Shown here: positions 2,031-38,803 of the stretch, one piece after another
How the letters are laid out: the number at the start of each line of letters is the position of its first letter
Position numbering within the stretch: position 1 is the stretch's first letter
Assembly (NCBI GenBank): GCA_002359655.1
Contig: DENL01000003.1
Span: 7,418-71,417, forward strand
DNA: 64,000 nt
Direction of reading: 5' to 3'
From: Rickettsiales bacterium UBA2645
GTDB taxonomy: Bacteria; Pseudomonadota; Alphaproteobacteria; Rickettsiales; UBA1997
The notes under the pieces: model-generated
What the model was told of the DNA's origin: nothing
The model's input: the letters and a program-made list of their open reading frames with translations, nothing else
Database searches by the model: none
Made by a program: the position numbers and the translations under genes

Positions 2031-2870
2031 ATGGCTATCGACACTATATCTGCACAATGTTTTATTGCAGTTGCCGACACTGGAAGTTTTACGAAAGCGG
2101 CAAGTCGCGTTGGCAGAACTCAATCAGCGGTTAGTCAACAAATTGCTAAATTGGAAAACTTTGTTGGAAAGCAGCTTTTTGTGAGAGGAAAAATATTTTC
2201 CTTAACCAATGAAGGTGAGATTTTTTTAGGATATATAAGGCAGATATTTGCTCTGCACCGTGAAGCAATAGATTGCTTTAAAGAGCCTGAGCTGAAAGGA
2301 GAAGTTAGATTTGGTGTGCCAGAAGATTTTGCCAGCGTGTTTCTTTACGATGTTTTACGAGAATTTTCTCAAATACATCCTAAAATTTTGCTTAATATAG
2401 AATGTGATCTGACTCTTAATTTATACGAAAAGTTTAAGCATAAAGAGTTTGATCTGGTGGTTGTTAAAATGAAACCACCACACAAATTTAAAAATGAGTT
2501 AGAATTGCTTTCAGAAAAACTTGAATGGGCAGGAGATTCCAGATTAGTAAAAAAAGGTGAGGCAATTCCTTTAATTCTTTCACCAAAACCTTGCCTTTAC
2601 CGTGAAAAAGCAATAGCTGCTCTTGATAAAAAAAGAATTAAATGGCGTTTAGCTTTTTCCAGCAACAGCTATGCGGGTAAAATAGCAGCCCTGCGAGCTG
2701 GGCTTGGAATTACAGTTTTTCCACACACAATTATTCCGTCAGAAATTAAAATCATTAGATCTCCTATTCTGCCAGAACTAAAAGATAGCCATTTTTCTTT
2801 ACTTAAACATAAAAATGACAAAGCGGCAGTAAATTCGTTTGAAGAGTTCGTCATAAAGAATCTAAAATAA
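2031..2870 (+). CDS. LysR-family transcriptional regulator
   Basis: N-terminal HTH (FIAVADTGSFTKAASRVGRTQSAVSQQIAKLE) plus a LysR substrate-binding domain. Divergent from dabB across a 115-bp intergenic region. Confidence 0.9.
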   Translation: MAIDTISAQCFIAVADTGSFTKAASRVGRTQSAVSQQIAKLENFVGKQLFVRGKIFSLTNEGEIFLGYIRQIFALHREAIDCFKEPELKGEVRFGVPEDFASVFLYDVLREFSQIHPKILLNIECDLTLNLYEKFKHKEFDLVVVKMKPPHKFKNELELLSEKLEWAGDSRLVKKGEAIPLILSPKPCLYREKAIAALDKKRIKWRLAFSSNSYAGKIAALRAGLGITVFPHTIIPSEIKIIRSPILPELKDSHFSLLKHKNDKAAVNSFEEFVIKNLK

Positions 2871-2873
2871 AAA

Positions 2874-2988
2874 CTGATTTTTTGTAATTTTTTAGTGTAA
2901 TTTGCCTATAGGCTTGGCGCCTTGATTTTAAAGGGTTGAAGATAGTTTCTCTGAATTTTGAACACGTGTTCAAAATTCAGTTTTTTTG
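2874..2988 (+). repeat. 115-bp repeat, copy 1 of 2 (family 2); candidate small-RNA or terminator cassette
   Basis: Nearly identical by eye (a handful of mismatches) to 38175-38289, in the same orientation. Sequence: ctgattttttgtaatttt..gtgtaatttgcctataggcttggcgc.ttgatt.taaagggttga...gtttct + palindrome + T7. Confidence 0.85.
2951..2987 (+). terminator. Rho-independent terminator-like hairpin inside repeat copy 1
   Basis: Perfect 30-bp palindrome ctgaattttgaacacgtgttcaaaattcag (2951-2980) followed by TTTTTTT (2981-2987). There is no matching A-tract on the left, so it is unidirectional for the plus strand. It lies 80 nt after the lysR stop. Confidence 0.7.
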
Positions 2989-3042
2989 TCATTAAATTTG
3001 CAATTTAAATCGTTCTTATCCAGCAACTTACGCGTAAAAAAC

Positions 3043-4116
3043 TTAGCCAAATATGTGCTTCATTTTTTCTTCTAAGGCTAGAAAAGAAAATTTTGTTTTC
3101 AGGCGAGAAAAAGAATTTTCAACCAAAGCATCAAGCAATTGTGGATTTTCTGATATTTCAAGGACAACTTCAGCAATCCTTTGATCAAGGCTTTCTACAG
3201 GTTTTAAGGCAATAATTATTCCGTCAACTTTATCGCGTAAAATTTCTTTCGATCCGTCAGTATCGGTGGCAATTATTGGTTTGCGATATTTTATGGCCTC
3301 AAGCAAAACAAGGCCAAAAGTTTCGTTATCAGAAGCGCTGCAAAATATGTCGATTGACTGAAAAAATTCTTTTTTATTTTTAACCCAGCCACAAAATTCG
3401 ATTTGTTTTTCCAGATTTAATTTTTGGGTCAAGATCCGCAAATCTTTTTCGAAAGGCCCAGAGCCAGCAATCCTTAGAATAAATTTTTGTTTCGGATTTT
3501 TATTCGTTGCTATTTTTTGCAACTTCTCGATCGCTTTAATTAGATGATCAAAACCTTTTTTATCGTCAATTCTGGCCATGGCGCCAAGTGTGATCACGGC
3601 TTGTTTTTGTAAATTTACTCTTGGCGCAACTGTGATCGCATCATTCAAATCAACAGCATTTGGAATGACAAAGCTGCTGTCTTCTTTTTGACCAAGATCA
3701 ATAGTGCGATGAAAAATTTCACGATTAACCGAGAAAATTAAATCAGCACCAATTGAGCGCTTAACATTCATGCTGTGATTGACCGCGATGAGAAAAATTT
3801 TGTGATTGGGAAATTTTTTAATCGCTTTTTTTGCCAGAACCACCGATCTGCCAACATGCGCTATTACTGACATTGGGCTGAAATCTTGCAGAATTTTTTT
3901 TAGCTCTTTGATGGCAAAAATGTCGTAATCACCAAAGCGATTTGAGATTTTTTTAACTTCGATTCCAAGAAAGGAGATTTGATCGGCATAAGGCGCATCT
4001 TCTTTGACGATTGCCAGAACTTCGTGGCCTAAATTTTTTAAAACAACAAGGTAATCGACAAAAACTTGCTCAGCACCACCATTTTGCGAAGTAAGAATGA
4101 TGTTGAGGATTTTCAT
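3043..4116 (-). CDS. Glycosyltransferase family 4 (GT-B, RfaG-like)
   Basis: MKILNIILTSQNGGAEQV... N-terminus and the C-terminal E-x7-E region (..SDNETFGLVLLEAIKYRKPIIATD..) typical of GT4. Confidence 0.85.
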   Translation of the reverse strand: MKILNIILTSQNGGAEQVFVDYLVVLKNLGHEVLAIVKEDAPYADQISFLGIEVKKISNRFGDYDIFAIKELKKILQDFSPMSVIAHVGRSVVLAKKAIKKFPNHKIFLIAVNHSMNVKRSIGADLIFSVNREIFHRTIDLGQKEDSSFVIPNAVDLNDAITVAPRVNLQKQAVITLGAMARIDDKKGFDHLIKAIEKLQKIATNKNPKQKFILRIAGSGPFEKDLRILTQKLNLEKQIEFCGWVKNKKEFFQSIDIFCSASDNETFGLVLLEAIKYRKPIIATDTDGSKEILRDKVDGIIIALKPVESLDQRIAEVVLEISENPQLLDALVENSFSRLKTKFSFLALEEKMKHIFG

Positions 4117-36295: not shown

Positions 36296-37195
36296 ATGAA
36301 AATCGCAGTTATATTTGGCGGCTCCGGCTTCGTTGGCAAGAGCGTCATTAGAAAATTACTTAAACAAAAGTTTCGTATCAAAGTTATCACTCGCGATAAA
36401 GAAAAATCTGCAGCTTTAAAAACTTTTGCCGCTCCAGATTTTTTATCATTAATTGAGTGGAATTATCAAAATTATAACAAGCTAGATTCTTTTATTTCTG
36501 GTGCCGATTTAGTTGTAAATTTAGTTGGCATTTTGGCTGAAGAAAAAAATGGCGACTTCATTAAAATTCACACTGATCTAGCAAAAATTATCGCCGAAAA
36601 ATGCCAAGAGTTTAATGTTAAAAATTTAGTTCATCTTTCAGCTTTAGGAGTTGAAAAACCTTCAAAAGCCAAATATGCCGCTTCTAAAATGGAAGCCGAA
36701 AAACAAGTTTTAGCAAGCTTTTCTAATGTCACAATTTTACGTCCTTCAATTATTTTTGGTGCTAATGATAACTTCTTCAACAAGTTTGCCAAAATGGCTA
36801 AACAGAAAAGAATTTTACCTTTGATCAATAATGGCATGACAAAATTCCAACCAATTTATGTCGAAGATTTAGGCGAAATTATCGCAAAAATTCCGCAAAC
36901 AAAAAAAGCAATTGGCAAAATTTATGAAATTGGTGGTGATAAAATATACAGCTTCCAAAGCTTGATGAAGCTAGTTGAAAACTATTGCAACTGTCGAGTT
37001 TTATTTATCAATTTACCTTTTTTTGCTGCAAATATTTTAGCATTTTTTTTGGAGTTTTTTACCAAAAAAATTATCACTCGCGATCAAGTTAAAATGCTAA
37101 AAATAGACAGCGTTTTAAGTGAAAATAATTTCAAAACTGATTTTGCTATTAACCCAAAATCAATTGAAGAAATTGTTCCCAATTATCTTCGCTAA
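36296..37195 (+). CDS. NAD(P)-binding atypical SDR, NDUFA9 (complex I 39-kDa)-like
   Basis: MKIAVIFGGSGFVGKSVIRKL Rossmann motif; 299 aa. Resembles the NDUFA9-like proteins common in alphaproteobacteria. Confidence 0.65.
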   Translation: MKIAVIFGGSGFVGKSVIRKLLKQKFRIKVITRDKEKSAALKTFAAPDFLSLIEWNYQNYNKLDSFISGADLVVNLVGILAEEKNGDFIKIHTDLAKIIAEKCQEFNVKNLVHLSALGVEKPSKAKYAASKMEAEKQVLASFSNVTILRPSIIFGANDNFFNKFAKMAKQKRILPLINNGMTKFQPIYVEDLGEIIAKIPQTKKAIGKIYEIGGDKIYSFQSLMKLVENYCNCRVLFINLPFFAANILAFFLEFFTKKIITRDQVKMLKIDSVLSENNFKTDFAINPKSIEEIVPNYLR

Positions 37196-38073
37196 TGTTT
37201 TTTTCACTCTGCCCTGCCAAGATTAATCTCTTTTTGAAGATAACAGGCAAAAGGTCTGATGGTTATCATGAGTTAGAATCACTTTTTGCTTTTTTGGATT
37301 TATCTGACGAGCTATTCGTAAAAAAAGGTGATCAATTTAAATTAGAAATCAGCGGCGAATTTGCCGACAAAATTGATTTAAAAAATAACCTCTTCGTAAA
37401 AATTTTAGATTTTTTTGCTAGTGAATTTCAAATCTCAAAAAATCTTGAAATTAAAATAATAAAAAACATTCCCGTTGCTGCCGGACTTGGCGGCGGCTCA
37501 TCTGACGCGGCTTACTTTCTGCATGCTTTAAATAAAATTTTTACACTCAATTTAAGTCTTGCCGAACTACAAAAAATTTCACTAAACTTTGGCTCAGACA
37601 TTGCTTTTCTTCTGCAAAATAAAGCTGCAATTGTGCGAGGTCGCGGCGAAAAAATTACAGAATTTCCAGCTTTTAAAGAAATTTCAGCATTGCTGATTAA
37701 TCCAAAAATTGCAGTTTCAACAAAAGAAATTTTTACTAATTTTGACAGCAATTTTTCTGCCAAAACTTCAGATGAGGCATTACTAAAAAAAGATGTTTTT
37801 GACTTAATAAAAAACTTTCCAAATGACATGGAAAAACCAGCAAAATCAAGCTTTCCTATTATTGCTGAAATTTTACAAGAGCTGAAAAATCACAAATCTG
37901 AAATCGCTAAAATGTCAGGAAGTGGTGCAACTTGTTTTGCAATTTTTAAAAACGAAAAAACTCTACAATCCACCCAAGATTTTTTCACAAAAAACTTCTC
38001 GAATTATTTCGTAAAAAAAGTTAAGATTTTAGGAGAAGTTAGTAAAAAAATTTCTCTCCAGAAAGCTCTCTGA
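37195..38073 (+). CDS. ispE: 4-diphosphocytidyl-2-C-methyl-D-erythritol kinase
   Basis: PAKINLFLKITGKR.DGYHELESLF and the GHMP motif PVAAGLGGGSSDAA. Confidence 0.92.
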   Translation: MFFSLCPAKINLFLKITGKRSDGYHELESLFAFLDLSDELFVKKGDQFKLEISGEFADKIDLKNNLFVKILDFFASEFQISKNLEIKIIKNIPVAAGLGGGSSDAAYFLHALNKIFTLNLSLAELQKISLNFGSDIAFLLQNKAAIVRGRGEKITEFPAFKEISALLINPKIAVSTKEIFTNFDSNFSAKTSDEALLKKDVFDLIKNFPNDMEKPAKSSFPIIAEILQELKNHKSEIAKMSGSGATCFAIFKNEKTLQSTQDFFTKNFSNYFVKKVKILGEVSKKISLQKAL

Positions 38074-38174
38074 GCAAACTTATTACTTCGCTTAGTGACC
38101 TTCTCAATTTTATTTTTTTAAATTTTTCCTCTGAATTTTTTAAAAAAAATGCCGCAATCTTGCTCAAATAAAAG

Positions 38175-38289
38175 CTGATTTTTTGTAATTTTTGAGTGTA
38201 ATTTGCCTATAGGCTTGGCGCTTTGATTCTAAAGGGTTGAGGACCGTTTCTCTGAATTTTGAACACGTGTTCAAAATTCAGTTTTTTTG
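38175..38289 (+). repeat. 115-bp repeat, copy 2 of 2 (family 2); candidate small-RNA or terminator cassette
   Basis: Same orientation and near-identical sequence to 2874-2988. It lies 100 nt after the ispE stop and 44 nt before the DUF721 gene. Confidence 0.85.
38252..38288 (+). terminator. Rho-independent terminator-like hairpin inside repeat copy 2
   Basis: Identical 30-bp perfect palindrome ctgaattttgaacacgtgttcaaaattcag (38252-38281) followed by TTTTTTT. Confidence 0.7.
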
Positions 38290-38332
38290 TAAAGAATTTT
38301 TGTGAATTAATGCAAACCAATAAAATTAATTT

Positions 38333-38803
38333 ATGAAATCTTACGGATTACAATCAATTGAACAAAAACTATCTGACTTTTTAAAACCAATATTCCAAGG
38401 CAGTAAGAAAGAATTTATCTTAATCAATAATTTGGTAAAGAATTGGCAAGAAGTGGTTGGCGTGAAATATTTTAATTTTTGCTATCCAAAATCAGTTAAT
38501 TTTAATAAAGACAAATCAGTTGGTGGCAAGTTGACAATAGCGGTTTACAACTCTTCTGTAGGATTTTTTTTAGAAAATAATTCAGAACTAATTATTGAAA
38601 GAATCGCCCGCTTTTATGGCTTTAAAGCAATTTCTAAAATCATTATTAAACAAGAACCAAAAACCACTAACTCTGTACAGACTTCAGAAATAAAGCTTCC
38701 TGAGCTTGAAGAAAAATTTCTGCAAGAAAGAGTTTCTCAAATTACAGACCCAGATTTGAGCAAAACTTTACAAAAATTAGGACGCGAAATTTTAAAGAAA
38801 TAA
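38333..38803 (+). CDS. DUF721/DciA-like protein
   Basis: 156 aa. The pattern ..L..W..VVG......C.P..........L.I.V.NS..G..L......II.RI....G resembles DUF721. Assignment is from memory of the family profile only. Confidence 0.5.
   Translation: MKSYGLQSIEQKLSDFLKPIFQGSKKEFILINNLVKNWQEVVGVKYFNFCYPKSVNFNKDKSVGGKLTIAVYNSSVGFFLENNSELIIERIARFYGFKAISKIIIKQEPKTTNSVQTSEIKLPELEEKFLQERVSQITDPDLSKTLQKLGREILKK

Follow-up and report, generated by a model that had tools for sequence, protein, structure and literature searches.

A 115-bp repeat that occurs twice in the window (the whole 64,000-nucleotide stretch of DNA analysed here) is shown, by comparison with related copies in the same and sister genomes, to be a gene-less copy of the region that precedes a multi-copy nuclease gene restricted to one genus of uncultured Rickettsiales. 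The account of these repeats that we regard as probable, taken as a whole, has three parts: they would be solo copies of the gene's leader, they would carry a palindrome that is specific to each paralog of the gene and acts at the level of DNA, and they would present a terminator on their plus strand. Throughout, G000 is the source genome of the window (1.76 Mb, 36% G+C, in 55 contigs), C-numbers are contigs of G000, and G001, G120 and G134 are sister genomes. We call an element copy without a gene a solo, and give the limits of the element with a minus or plus sign relative to the centre of the palindrome.

The two repeats in the window (2874-2988, copy A, and 38175-38289, copy B) have the same orientation, and BLAST gives a gap-free alignment with 95% identity over 115 nt. 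Both are intergenic and follow plus-strand genes, as an earlier note on this DNA had stated: copy A is flanked by lysR (2031-2870, plus strand) and a convergent GT4 glycosyltransferase gene (3043-4116, minus strand), and copy B by ispE (37195-38073, plus strand) and a DUF721-like gene (38333-38803, plus strand). The palindrome followed by a run of seven Ts that had been reported in both copies is there (Table 1), and so are the short sequence boxes described in copy A (TGTAAT at 2896-2901, CTGATT at 2874-2879 with a 16-nt spacer between them, and gcctataggc at 2904-2913). Homology between copy A and the other copies sets in approximately 103 nt to the left of the palindrome centre, right at the lysR stop codon, and wanes about 45 nt to its right. 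The C-terminus of lysR (KNLK*) is native, with the same ending in sister genomes.

Although the two repeats are both real, they are not a pair. By BLAST searches and with a covariance model built from the copies, we found approximately 21 copies of the element on 19 contigs of G000, consisting of 3 intact genes and about 18 solos; this is a minimum count, because several copies sit less than 250 nt from contig ends. The unit is thus multi-copy, as had been proposed, and with so many dispersed copies on so many contigs it is not a segmental duplication, a possibility that had been raised. Every copy in G000 is intergenic, in the sense of lying between open reading frames (ORFs) of at least 90 aa. 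The homology common to all copies extends from -87 to +23, and about half of the copies contain a unit longer than 115 bp, with a span of up to -160 to +45: approximately 10 copies reach to between -130 and -160 on the left and to about +45 on the right, where a second small hairpin lies. Identity tapers off gradually at both edges, the boundaries vary by copy (from -35 to -182 on the left; from +12 to +65, and once +91, on the right), and subfamilies diverge in upstream sequence from -87 outward. The left extension of the long-form solos (38126-38174 in the window) consists of a copy of a palindrome half-arm and then runs of T and A (TTCCTCTGAATTTTTTAAAAAAAA), and is possibly what is left of a second palindrome that collapsed. 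We rejected the idea that this extension is the 3' end of the nuclease gene, which would make the long solos internal-deletion derivatives, since it has no convincing similarity to any gene 3' end.

The origin of the element became apparent from its full-length matches in sister genomes, which the covariance model also returned. In most of the best-scoring sister-genome matches that we read, the DNA to the left of the element is conserved and is protein-coding on the opposite strand. Read on the minus strand, the element has the order A-tract, palindrome, leader of approximately 55 nt, ATG, and the codons M-Q-I-x-L-K-N-Y-K-K-L. In intact copies, which are present in sister genomes and on contigs C30 and C3 of G000, it runs on into an ORF of 325-340 aa that begins MQIxLKNYKKLL. 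All three G000 genes have a palindrome that begins 69-71 nt ahead of the ATG; in the general layout of the element it is a perfect palindrome of 24-30 bp with its centre about 55 nt before the start codon. Copy A has the identical palindrome to the one upstream of the intact gene on C30. In the solos, including copies A and B, the ATG has decayed to AGG (at 2905-2907 in copy A) and homology to the gene ends after codon 11. Conservation of the 75 nt upstream of the hairpin is therefore accounted for by descent from a leader and first 11 codons on the opposite strand. Two 'TGTAAT' boxes in copy A fall inside this codon remnant and correspond, in reverse complement, to the conserved codons AAT TAC AAA AAA (N-Y-K-K). 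As a sigma-70 promoter for the nuclease gene itself, the interval between palindrome and ATG offers only TTCAGA-N19-TAAAAT, which is unconserved across the family.

Table 1. Element copies A and B in the window, with their parts, and the intact nuclease genes of the source genome (G000).
Feature	Position	Strand	Evidence or remark
Copy A, solo, short form	2863-3010	+	homology to other copies; native lysR end
Start codon and first 11 codons remnant (x-Q-I-T-L-K-N-Y-K-K) of DUF1016_N-SNase gene, copy A	2875-2907	-	
Nuclease-gene 5' leader remnant, copy A	2908-2950	-	includes conserved block CCCTTTAAAATCAAGG (minus-strand reading)
Palindrome of copy A, 30 bp, perfect, CTGAATTTTGAACACGTGTTCAAAATTCAG	2951-2980	.	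20-mer core invariant in 19 genomic copies
T7 run, copy A; with palindrome intrinsic-terminator-like, after lysR	2981-2987	+	terminator scan, folding
Copy B, solo, long form, inserted between ispE and DUF721 gene	38126-38320	+	
Left extension of copy B, common to ~10 copies	38126-38174	+	opens with palindrome half-arm copy TTCCTCTGAATTTT
Leader remnant, decayed start codon and first 11 codons, copy B	38176-38251	-	offset 35301 from copy A
Palindrome of copy B, 30 bp, perfect, same as copy A	38252-38281	.	
T7 run, copy B, terminator-like, after ispE	38282-38288	+	
Intact nuclease gene	G000 C30:3055-4062		same palindrome as solos
Intact nuclease gene	G000 C3:9903-10889		palindrome TTTTCCGCTCGAGCGGAAAA
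Intact nuclease gene	G000 C37:30220-31212		palindrome GATTTTGGCGATATCGCCAAAATC

All three G000 genes match the Pfam domain DUF1016_N (PF17761) with E-values of 1e-15 to 1e-20, above the curated cut-off. We found no Pfam match to PF06250 (YhcG_C, PD-(D/E)XK) in these DUF1016_N-SNase proteins, whose C-terminus has a staphylococcal nuclease (SNase) fold instead: the SNase match there is weak in Pfam, and a PDB sequence search returns thermonuclease. In an AlphaFold (AF2) model built from 78 homologs (pLDDT 87), a helical N-domain is accompanied by a small beta domain, and the C-terminal domain can be superposed on staphylococcal nuclease (TM 0.68, rmsd 1.9 A). As modelled, then, the protein of approximately 330 aa is a DUF1016_N helical domain followed by a small beta domain and a staphylococcal-nuclease fold. 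The catalytic and Ca2+-binding residues of SNase are D21, R35, D40, E43 and R87. Equivalents of its DGD, RL, E and YGR motifs are invariant in the 78 homologs, but the position of the calcium ligand D40 is mostly occupied by N in the family (RLAKINAAE), so the catalytic activity of the protein is uncertain. There are about 500 homologs, those with a name being called thermonuclease-like, YncB-like or hypothetical, and their NCBI records come from Rickettsiales MAGs. In a set of 251 Rickettsiales genomes, we found the full-length fusion gene in this genus alone, and one other genus has a weak match to the C-terminal part of the nuclease only. The gene is present in 26 of the 44 genomes of the genus, with 1-14 matches each, and 240 genomes from elsewhere in the order are essentially free of it. 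Element and gene co-occur: the gene is found in all 20 of the element-bearing genomes, and 15 genomes that lack the gene have no element matches.

Each paralog of the gene has its own palindrome, set between conserved outer arms (G)AATTTT...AAAATT(C). We read 4 to 5 genes and 6 solos in G001, and 6 intact genes with 11 solos in G120. In these two genomes, as in G000, solos match an intact gene of their own genome exactly over its 22-26-nt palindrome, and in diverged solo/gene groups the adjoining 70-nt leader is only 50-73% identical despite the identical palindrome. Some groups of solos lack a cognate intact gene among the copies that we read (those with GAGCTACGTAGCTC in G120 and with GAACACGTGTTC in G134); in G134, the partner copy of the solos is without an intact ORF in the stretch that we read. 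Palindrome and gene can also be separated, because two genes with approximately 98% identity between -27 and +165 have palindromes that are unrelated to each other. The N-terminal 55 or so residues therefore do not set the palindrome, which is a swappable module, and as far as sequence comparison can tell this pair shows that recombination shuffles palindrome and coding modules.

The earlier note held that the 75 nt upstream of the hairpin are conserved just as well as the hairpin, which is not what the larger set of copies reveals. In 19 G000 copies the upstream part departs from the consensus at 14.7% of sites, whereas the central 20-mer of the palindrome has no changes in 380 sites, compared to 56 expected at the leader rate. 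How this constraint arises is the point on which the two leading explanations differ. One, which we think unlikely but which has to be taken seriously, is that the solos are passive relics: fragments of the 5' ends of nuclease genes would have been scattered by illegitimate recombination, with the palindrome, read by no protein, being kept by selection for a terminator in combination with template switching. Template switching during replication can keep perfect inverted repeats symmetric without any protein, and symmetric drift variants do exist (for example, CTACACGTGTAG at locus L132 of G134 versus GAACACGTGTTC, and locus L130 versus L127). The ragged edges of the copies, the lack of clear terminal inverted repeats or target duplications, and the separability of the palindrome module from the N-terminal coding region are further points in favor of this explanation.

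Several properties of the palindrome argue against passive relics. The four central bases, which would be free to vary as the loop of a hairpin, are unchanged in the 19 copies although approximately 11 changes are expected, and 27 of 34 distinct cores are palindromic, hence self-complementary, through the centre (chance 1 in 16 each). Among 72 distinct sequences the palindrome stem is 97% paired, with double (compensatory) changes in all 10 pairs, and one-sided changes of the G-U type, to which an RNA hairpin would be tolerant, occupy only 2 cells. An imperfect palindrome, TTGTCCGTACGGTCAA, is identically imperfect in one gene and two solos even though their flanks are only 45-64% identical. 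The covariation across copies that had been suggested as a check is thus present in the palindrome helix (10 of 10 pairs), but not in the helices outside it, which are 74-86% paired and have many one-sided changes. Because strict Watson-Crick symmetry, a constrained centre and identity across dispersed copies go beyond what an RNA terminator needs, they point to the palindrome being a site recognized at the DNA level, and not only an RNA hairpin.

Our preferred reading is that the palindrome would be a dyad-symmetric site in double-stranded DNA, specific to each paralog. The cognate nuclease would bind it as a dimer through its DUF1016_N part, for autoregulation, for cutting, or for both. Binding of this kind, as proposed, would be the reason why a gene and its solos share the exact palindrome, centre included, while their flanks decay. 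We put forward this paralog-specific DNA-level site tentatively, with the cognate nuclease dimer, acting via DUF1016_N, as the most likely protein to bind it.

The movement of the element can be seen at the site of copy B. The gap between ispE and the DUF721 gene is 262 nt in G000, where it is filled by copy B, versus 3-30 nt in approximately 19 of 29 sister genomes, and this comparison of gene junctions shows copy B to be an insertion. In other species the same junction holds unrelated GC-rich hairpin repeats (for example, cctcctttttcaaaggagg; loci L087, L088, L098, L110 and L111), so insertions of several repeat families recur at this junction. The idea of a mobile terminator cassette is plausible and agrees with the insertion of copy B and with the terminator shape, but it captures only one face of the element. 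Signs of conventional transposition were sought in several ways. The terminal inverted repeats are only weak and of low complexity, with a 9-nt half-arm pair (CTGAATTTT/AAAATTCAG) in the long forms; we did not find a target-site duplication at the G000 copies, a second palindrome on the 3' side of the intact nuclease genes (as in REP-like flanking), or a Y1 transposase (PF01797, IS200/RAYT) in G000, whereas control genomes respond to the Y1 search. The ragged edges fit recombination or repair-mediated copying better than cut-and-paste transposition.

One way in which such copying might work, which we offer as an improbable speculation, is a 'self-addressed' nuclease that needs no recombinase. 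Each paralog would use DUF1016_N to recognize its own palindrome, irrespective of the nuclease domain joined to it, and would cut or nick this site, perhaps while it is extruded as a hairpin or cruciform. With the gene-linked copy as repair template, the palindrome would then be spread and homogenized together with variable lengths of leader, giving rise to ragged-edged solos, and hairpin opening and fill-in would create new centres that are still perfectly symmetric. The host would use the resulting copies as terminators and 5' leaders.

It is very unlikely, by contrast, that the element is an ordinary MITE moved in trans by a transposase encoded elsewhere, its similarity to the nuclease leader being an incidental capture. 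The long form does open with CTGAATTTT, an inverted counterpart of the 3' arm AAAATTCAG that lies 133 nt from it, and there are approximately 20 dispersed copies, several of them at contig ends. However, boundaries differ from copy to copy, we saw no target-site duplication and found no Y1 transposase in the genome, and the element is limited to genomes that have the nuclease family, with a palindrome that is the one of a resident nuclease gene.

On the plus strand, both copies in the window have the textbook shape of an intrinsic terminator that had been attributed to them. A simple scan scored both as terminator-like, compared to 0.2-0.4 expected from shuffled sequences, and the hairpin (a stem of 13 pairs, of which only 4 are G-C, with a 4-nt loop and the T7 tail) dominates the fold. 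We judge it rather more credible than otherwise that the palindrome with its T7 run works as an intrinsic terminator on this strand. Terminator action, if correctly deduced, would explain why solos survive mainly just downstream of same-strand genes such as lysR and ispE: 13 of the 16 solos that have an upstream neighbor lie after a gene on the same strand (binomial p ~0.01), and 10 copies have a convergent gene next to them on the downstream side. This bias in orientation is modest, and could be a matter of tolerance instead of function. In the opposite orientation, some solos contribute a 5' leader, or even a start codon, to host genes (xseA in G000; a TonB-like gene and others in G001). For example, the start codon of xseA comes directly after a solo remnant ending in ...AAAAATTACAAAA (G000 C48:118195-118296), from which this gene appears to take its 5' untranslated region. 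A compact, endosymbiont-like genome may in this way gain both terminators and 5' leaders from selfish DNA.

A self-contained, multi-copy small RNA gene, as suggested in the earlier note, is highly improbable: a plus-strand RNA of approximately 80-90 nt ending at the hairpin and T7, with its own promoter (CTGATT-N16-TGTAAT, or TTGCTC-N18-TGTAAT in long copies), would agree with the terminator-like 3' end, with a 117-nt plus strand that folds better than shuffles (z = -3.8) and with the TTGCTC found 18 nt upstream of TGTAAT in long-form copies, but the conserved block is a protein gene's leader and 11 codons in reverse complement, the supposed promoter boxes derive from codons, the -10 candidates have no A at position 2 and there are zero sigma-70-like promoter calls inside the element on the plus strand, the helices beyond the palindrome lack the covariation of the palindrome itself, and upstream sequence varies between subfamilies. 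The repeat had not been recognized as a known RNA family, and this holds, with no Rfam match at gathering thresholds in the 64-kb window and only a chance-level hit to mir-83 (E 0.67) in a relaxed search of copy B. A tempting annotation as a multi-copy small RNA is thereby replaced with a testable one.

The closest known parallel is the REP/REPIN-RAYT system, in which short dispersed extragenic palindromes are tied to one protein gene (Bertels & Rainey 2011, PMC3116915; PMC3337134). Like that system, the element comprises tens of dispersed extragenic palindromes with the same palindrome beside a resident protein gene, is inherited mainly vertically in its lineage, and often has its palindromes at gene 3' ends. 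Unlike RAYT, which is a HUH/Y1 transposase, the partner is a DUF1016_N protein with an SNase-fold nuclease domain; its gene is multi-copy, and each paralog has a private palindrome, a single, perfect one found solely 5' of the gene, while the solos hold leader and codon remnants instead of REP doublets. The repeat family is thus REP/RAYT-like in having private palindromes, but with a nuclease from an uncharacterized family as its partner, not a transposase. We found no paper in the literature that ties DUF1016 or thermonuclease genes to dispersed palindromes.

Canonical DUF1016/YhcG genes, which code for PD-(D/E)XK nucleases (PF17761 plus PF06250), occur on mobile elements (PMC4316617). One is present in G000, outside the window, on the minus strand at C30:1990-3021, approximately 30 nt downstream of the C30 nuclease gene, and within its ORF, at codon 96, there is a near-perfect palindrome of 31 nt (GAATTTGTGCAGCAG[G]CTGCTGCACAAATTC). 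The two kinds of gene share the DUF1016_N domain, and the palindromes of the two neighbors have the same outer arms, GAATTT...AAATTC. They differ in that the SNase fold replaces the C-terminal PD-(D/E)XK domain, in that the palindrome of the SNase-fused gene is approximately 70 nt upstream of the ORF, not inside it, and in that the SNase-fused family has spawned many gene-less copies; we found no internal palindrome in the three SNase-fused genes of G000. Since palindromes accompany both types of nuclease, their association follows DUF1016_N and not the catalytic domain, which suggests from these gene comparisons that the link to palindromes belongs to DUF1016_N. This natural domain swap, in which DUF1016_N is joined to a catalytic domain other than that of YhcG, gives a handle on the role of a widespread and unstudied domain.

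Other families of bacterial repeats share some features of the element. The Correia elements of Neisseria and the ERIC/IRU repeats of enterobacteria are MITE-type intergenic repeats that bring terminators or promoters with them, and Correia elements have defined terminal inverted repeats and a target duplication of TA. Paired DNA uptake sequences (DUS) of Neisseria act as terminators (PMC2397512). Our element resembles these three groups as a 100-200-bp intergenic repeat with terminator-like hairpins after genes and donation of 5' leaders or promoters, but unlike Correia and ERIC, with their terminal inverted repeats and target duplications, or DUS, with its uptake machinery, it is ragged-ended and comes from the 5' end of a resident gene. 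The element is, like the Rickettsia palindromic elements (RPE), a family of palindromic repeats in a Rickettsiales lineage. RPE are GC-rich, in-frame insertions inside protein genes, whereas the element is AT-rich and strictly intergenic by the ORF definition given above.

Other palindromes turned up in the course of the searches. An isolated 33-nt copy of the C3-gene palindrome (AAATTTTCCGCTCGAGCGGAAAATTCAAA) lies in unrelated intergenic DNA at C20:17376-17399 in G000, with flanks that have no element homology; a folP-like gene begins about 25 nt downstream of it. G000 also has a separate family of 32-bp perfect palindromes, with two copies of AAGCCCCGATCGTAAATTTACGATCGGGGCTT and a related sequence, AAGCCCCGAAAAACTTAAGTTTTTCGGGGCTT (C22:3763-3794, C47:24-55 and C20:31021-31052). 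We considered a LexA/Cheo-box (GAAC-N4-GTTC) as the identity of the element's palindrome and rejected it, because the hairpin persists although its inner arms are wholly different from paralog to paralog and from one sister genome to the next. The 20-mer of the element's palindrome, TTTTGAACACGTGTTCAAAA, also occurs twice within approximately 9 kb in Candidatus Deianiraea vastatrix (locus L031, 3128-3147, and locus L032, 4007-4026). We do not count these sites as element copies, since the palindrome alone matches, near a gene for a large serine recombinase, and there is no element homology. Among the matches to that 20-mer in other MAGs, those in 'Rickettsiales bacterium NGIII-112018-84' are from G134, a sister genome of the same genus.

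The LysR protein encoded at 2031-2870 in the window is 90-95% identical in six sister genomes, versus 58-71% for the DUF721 protein, and the downstream neighbors of lysR are different in every genome. This pattern suggests recent horizontal exchange of lysR within the genus.
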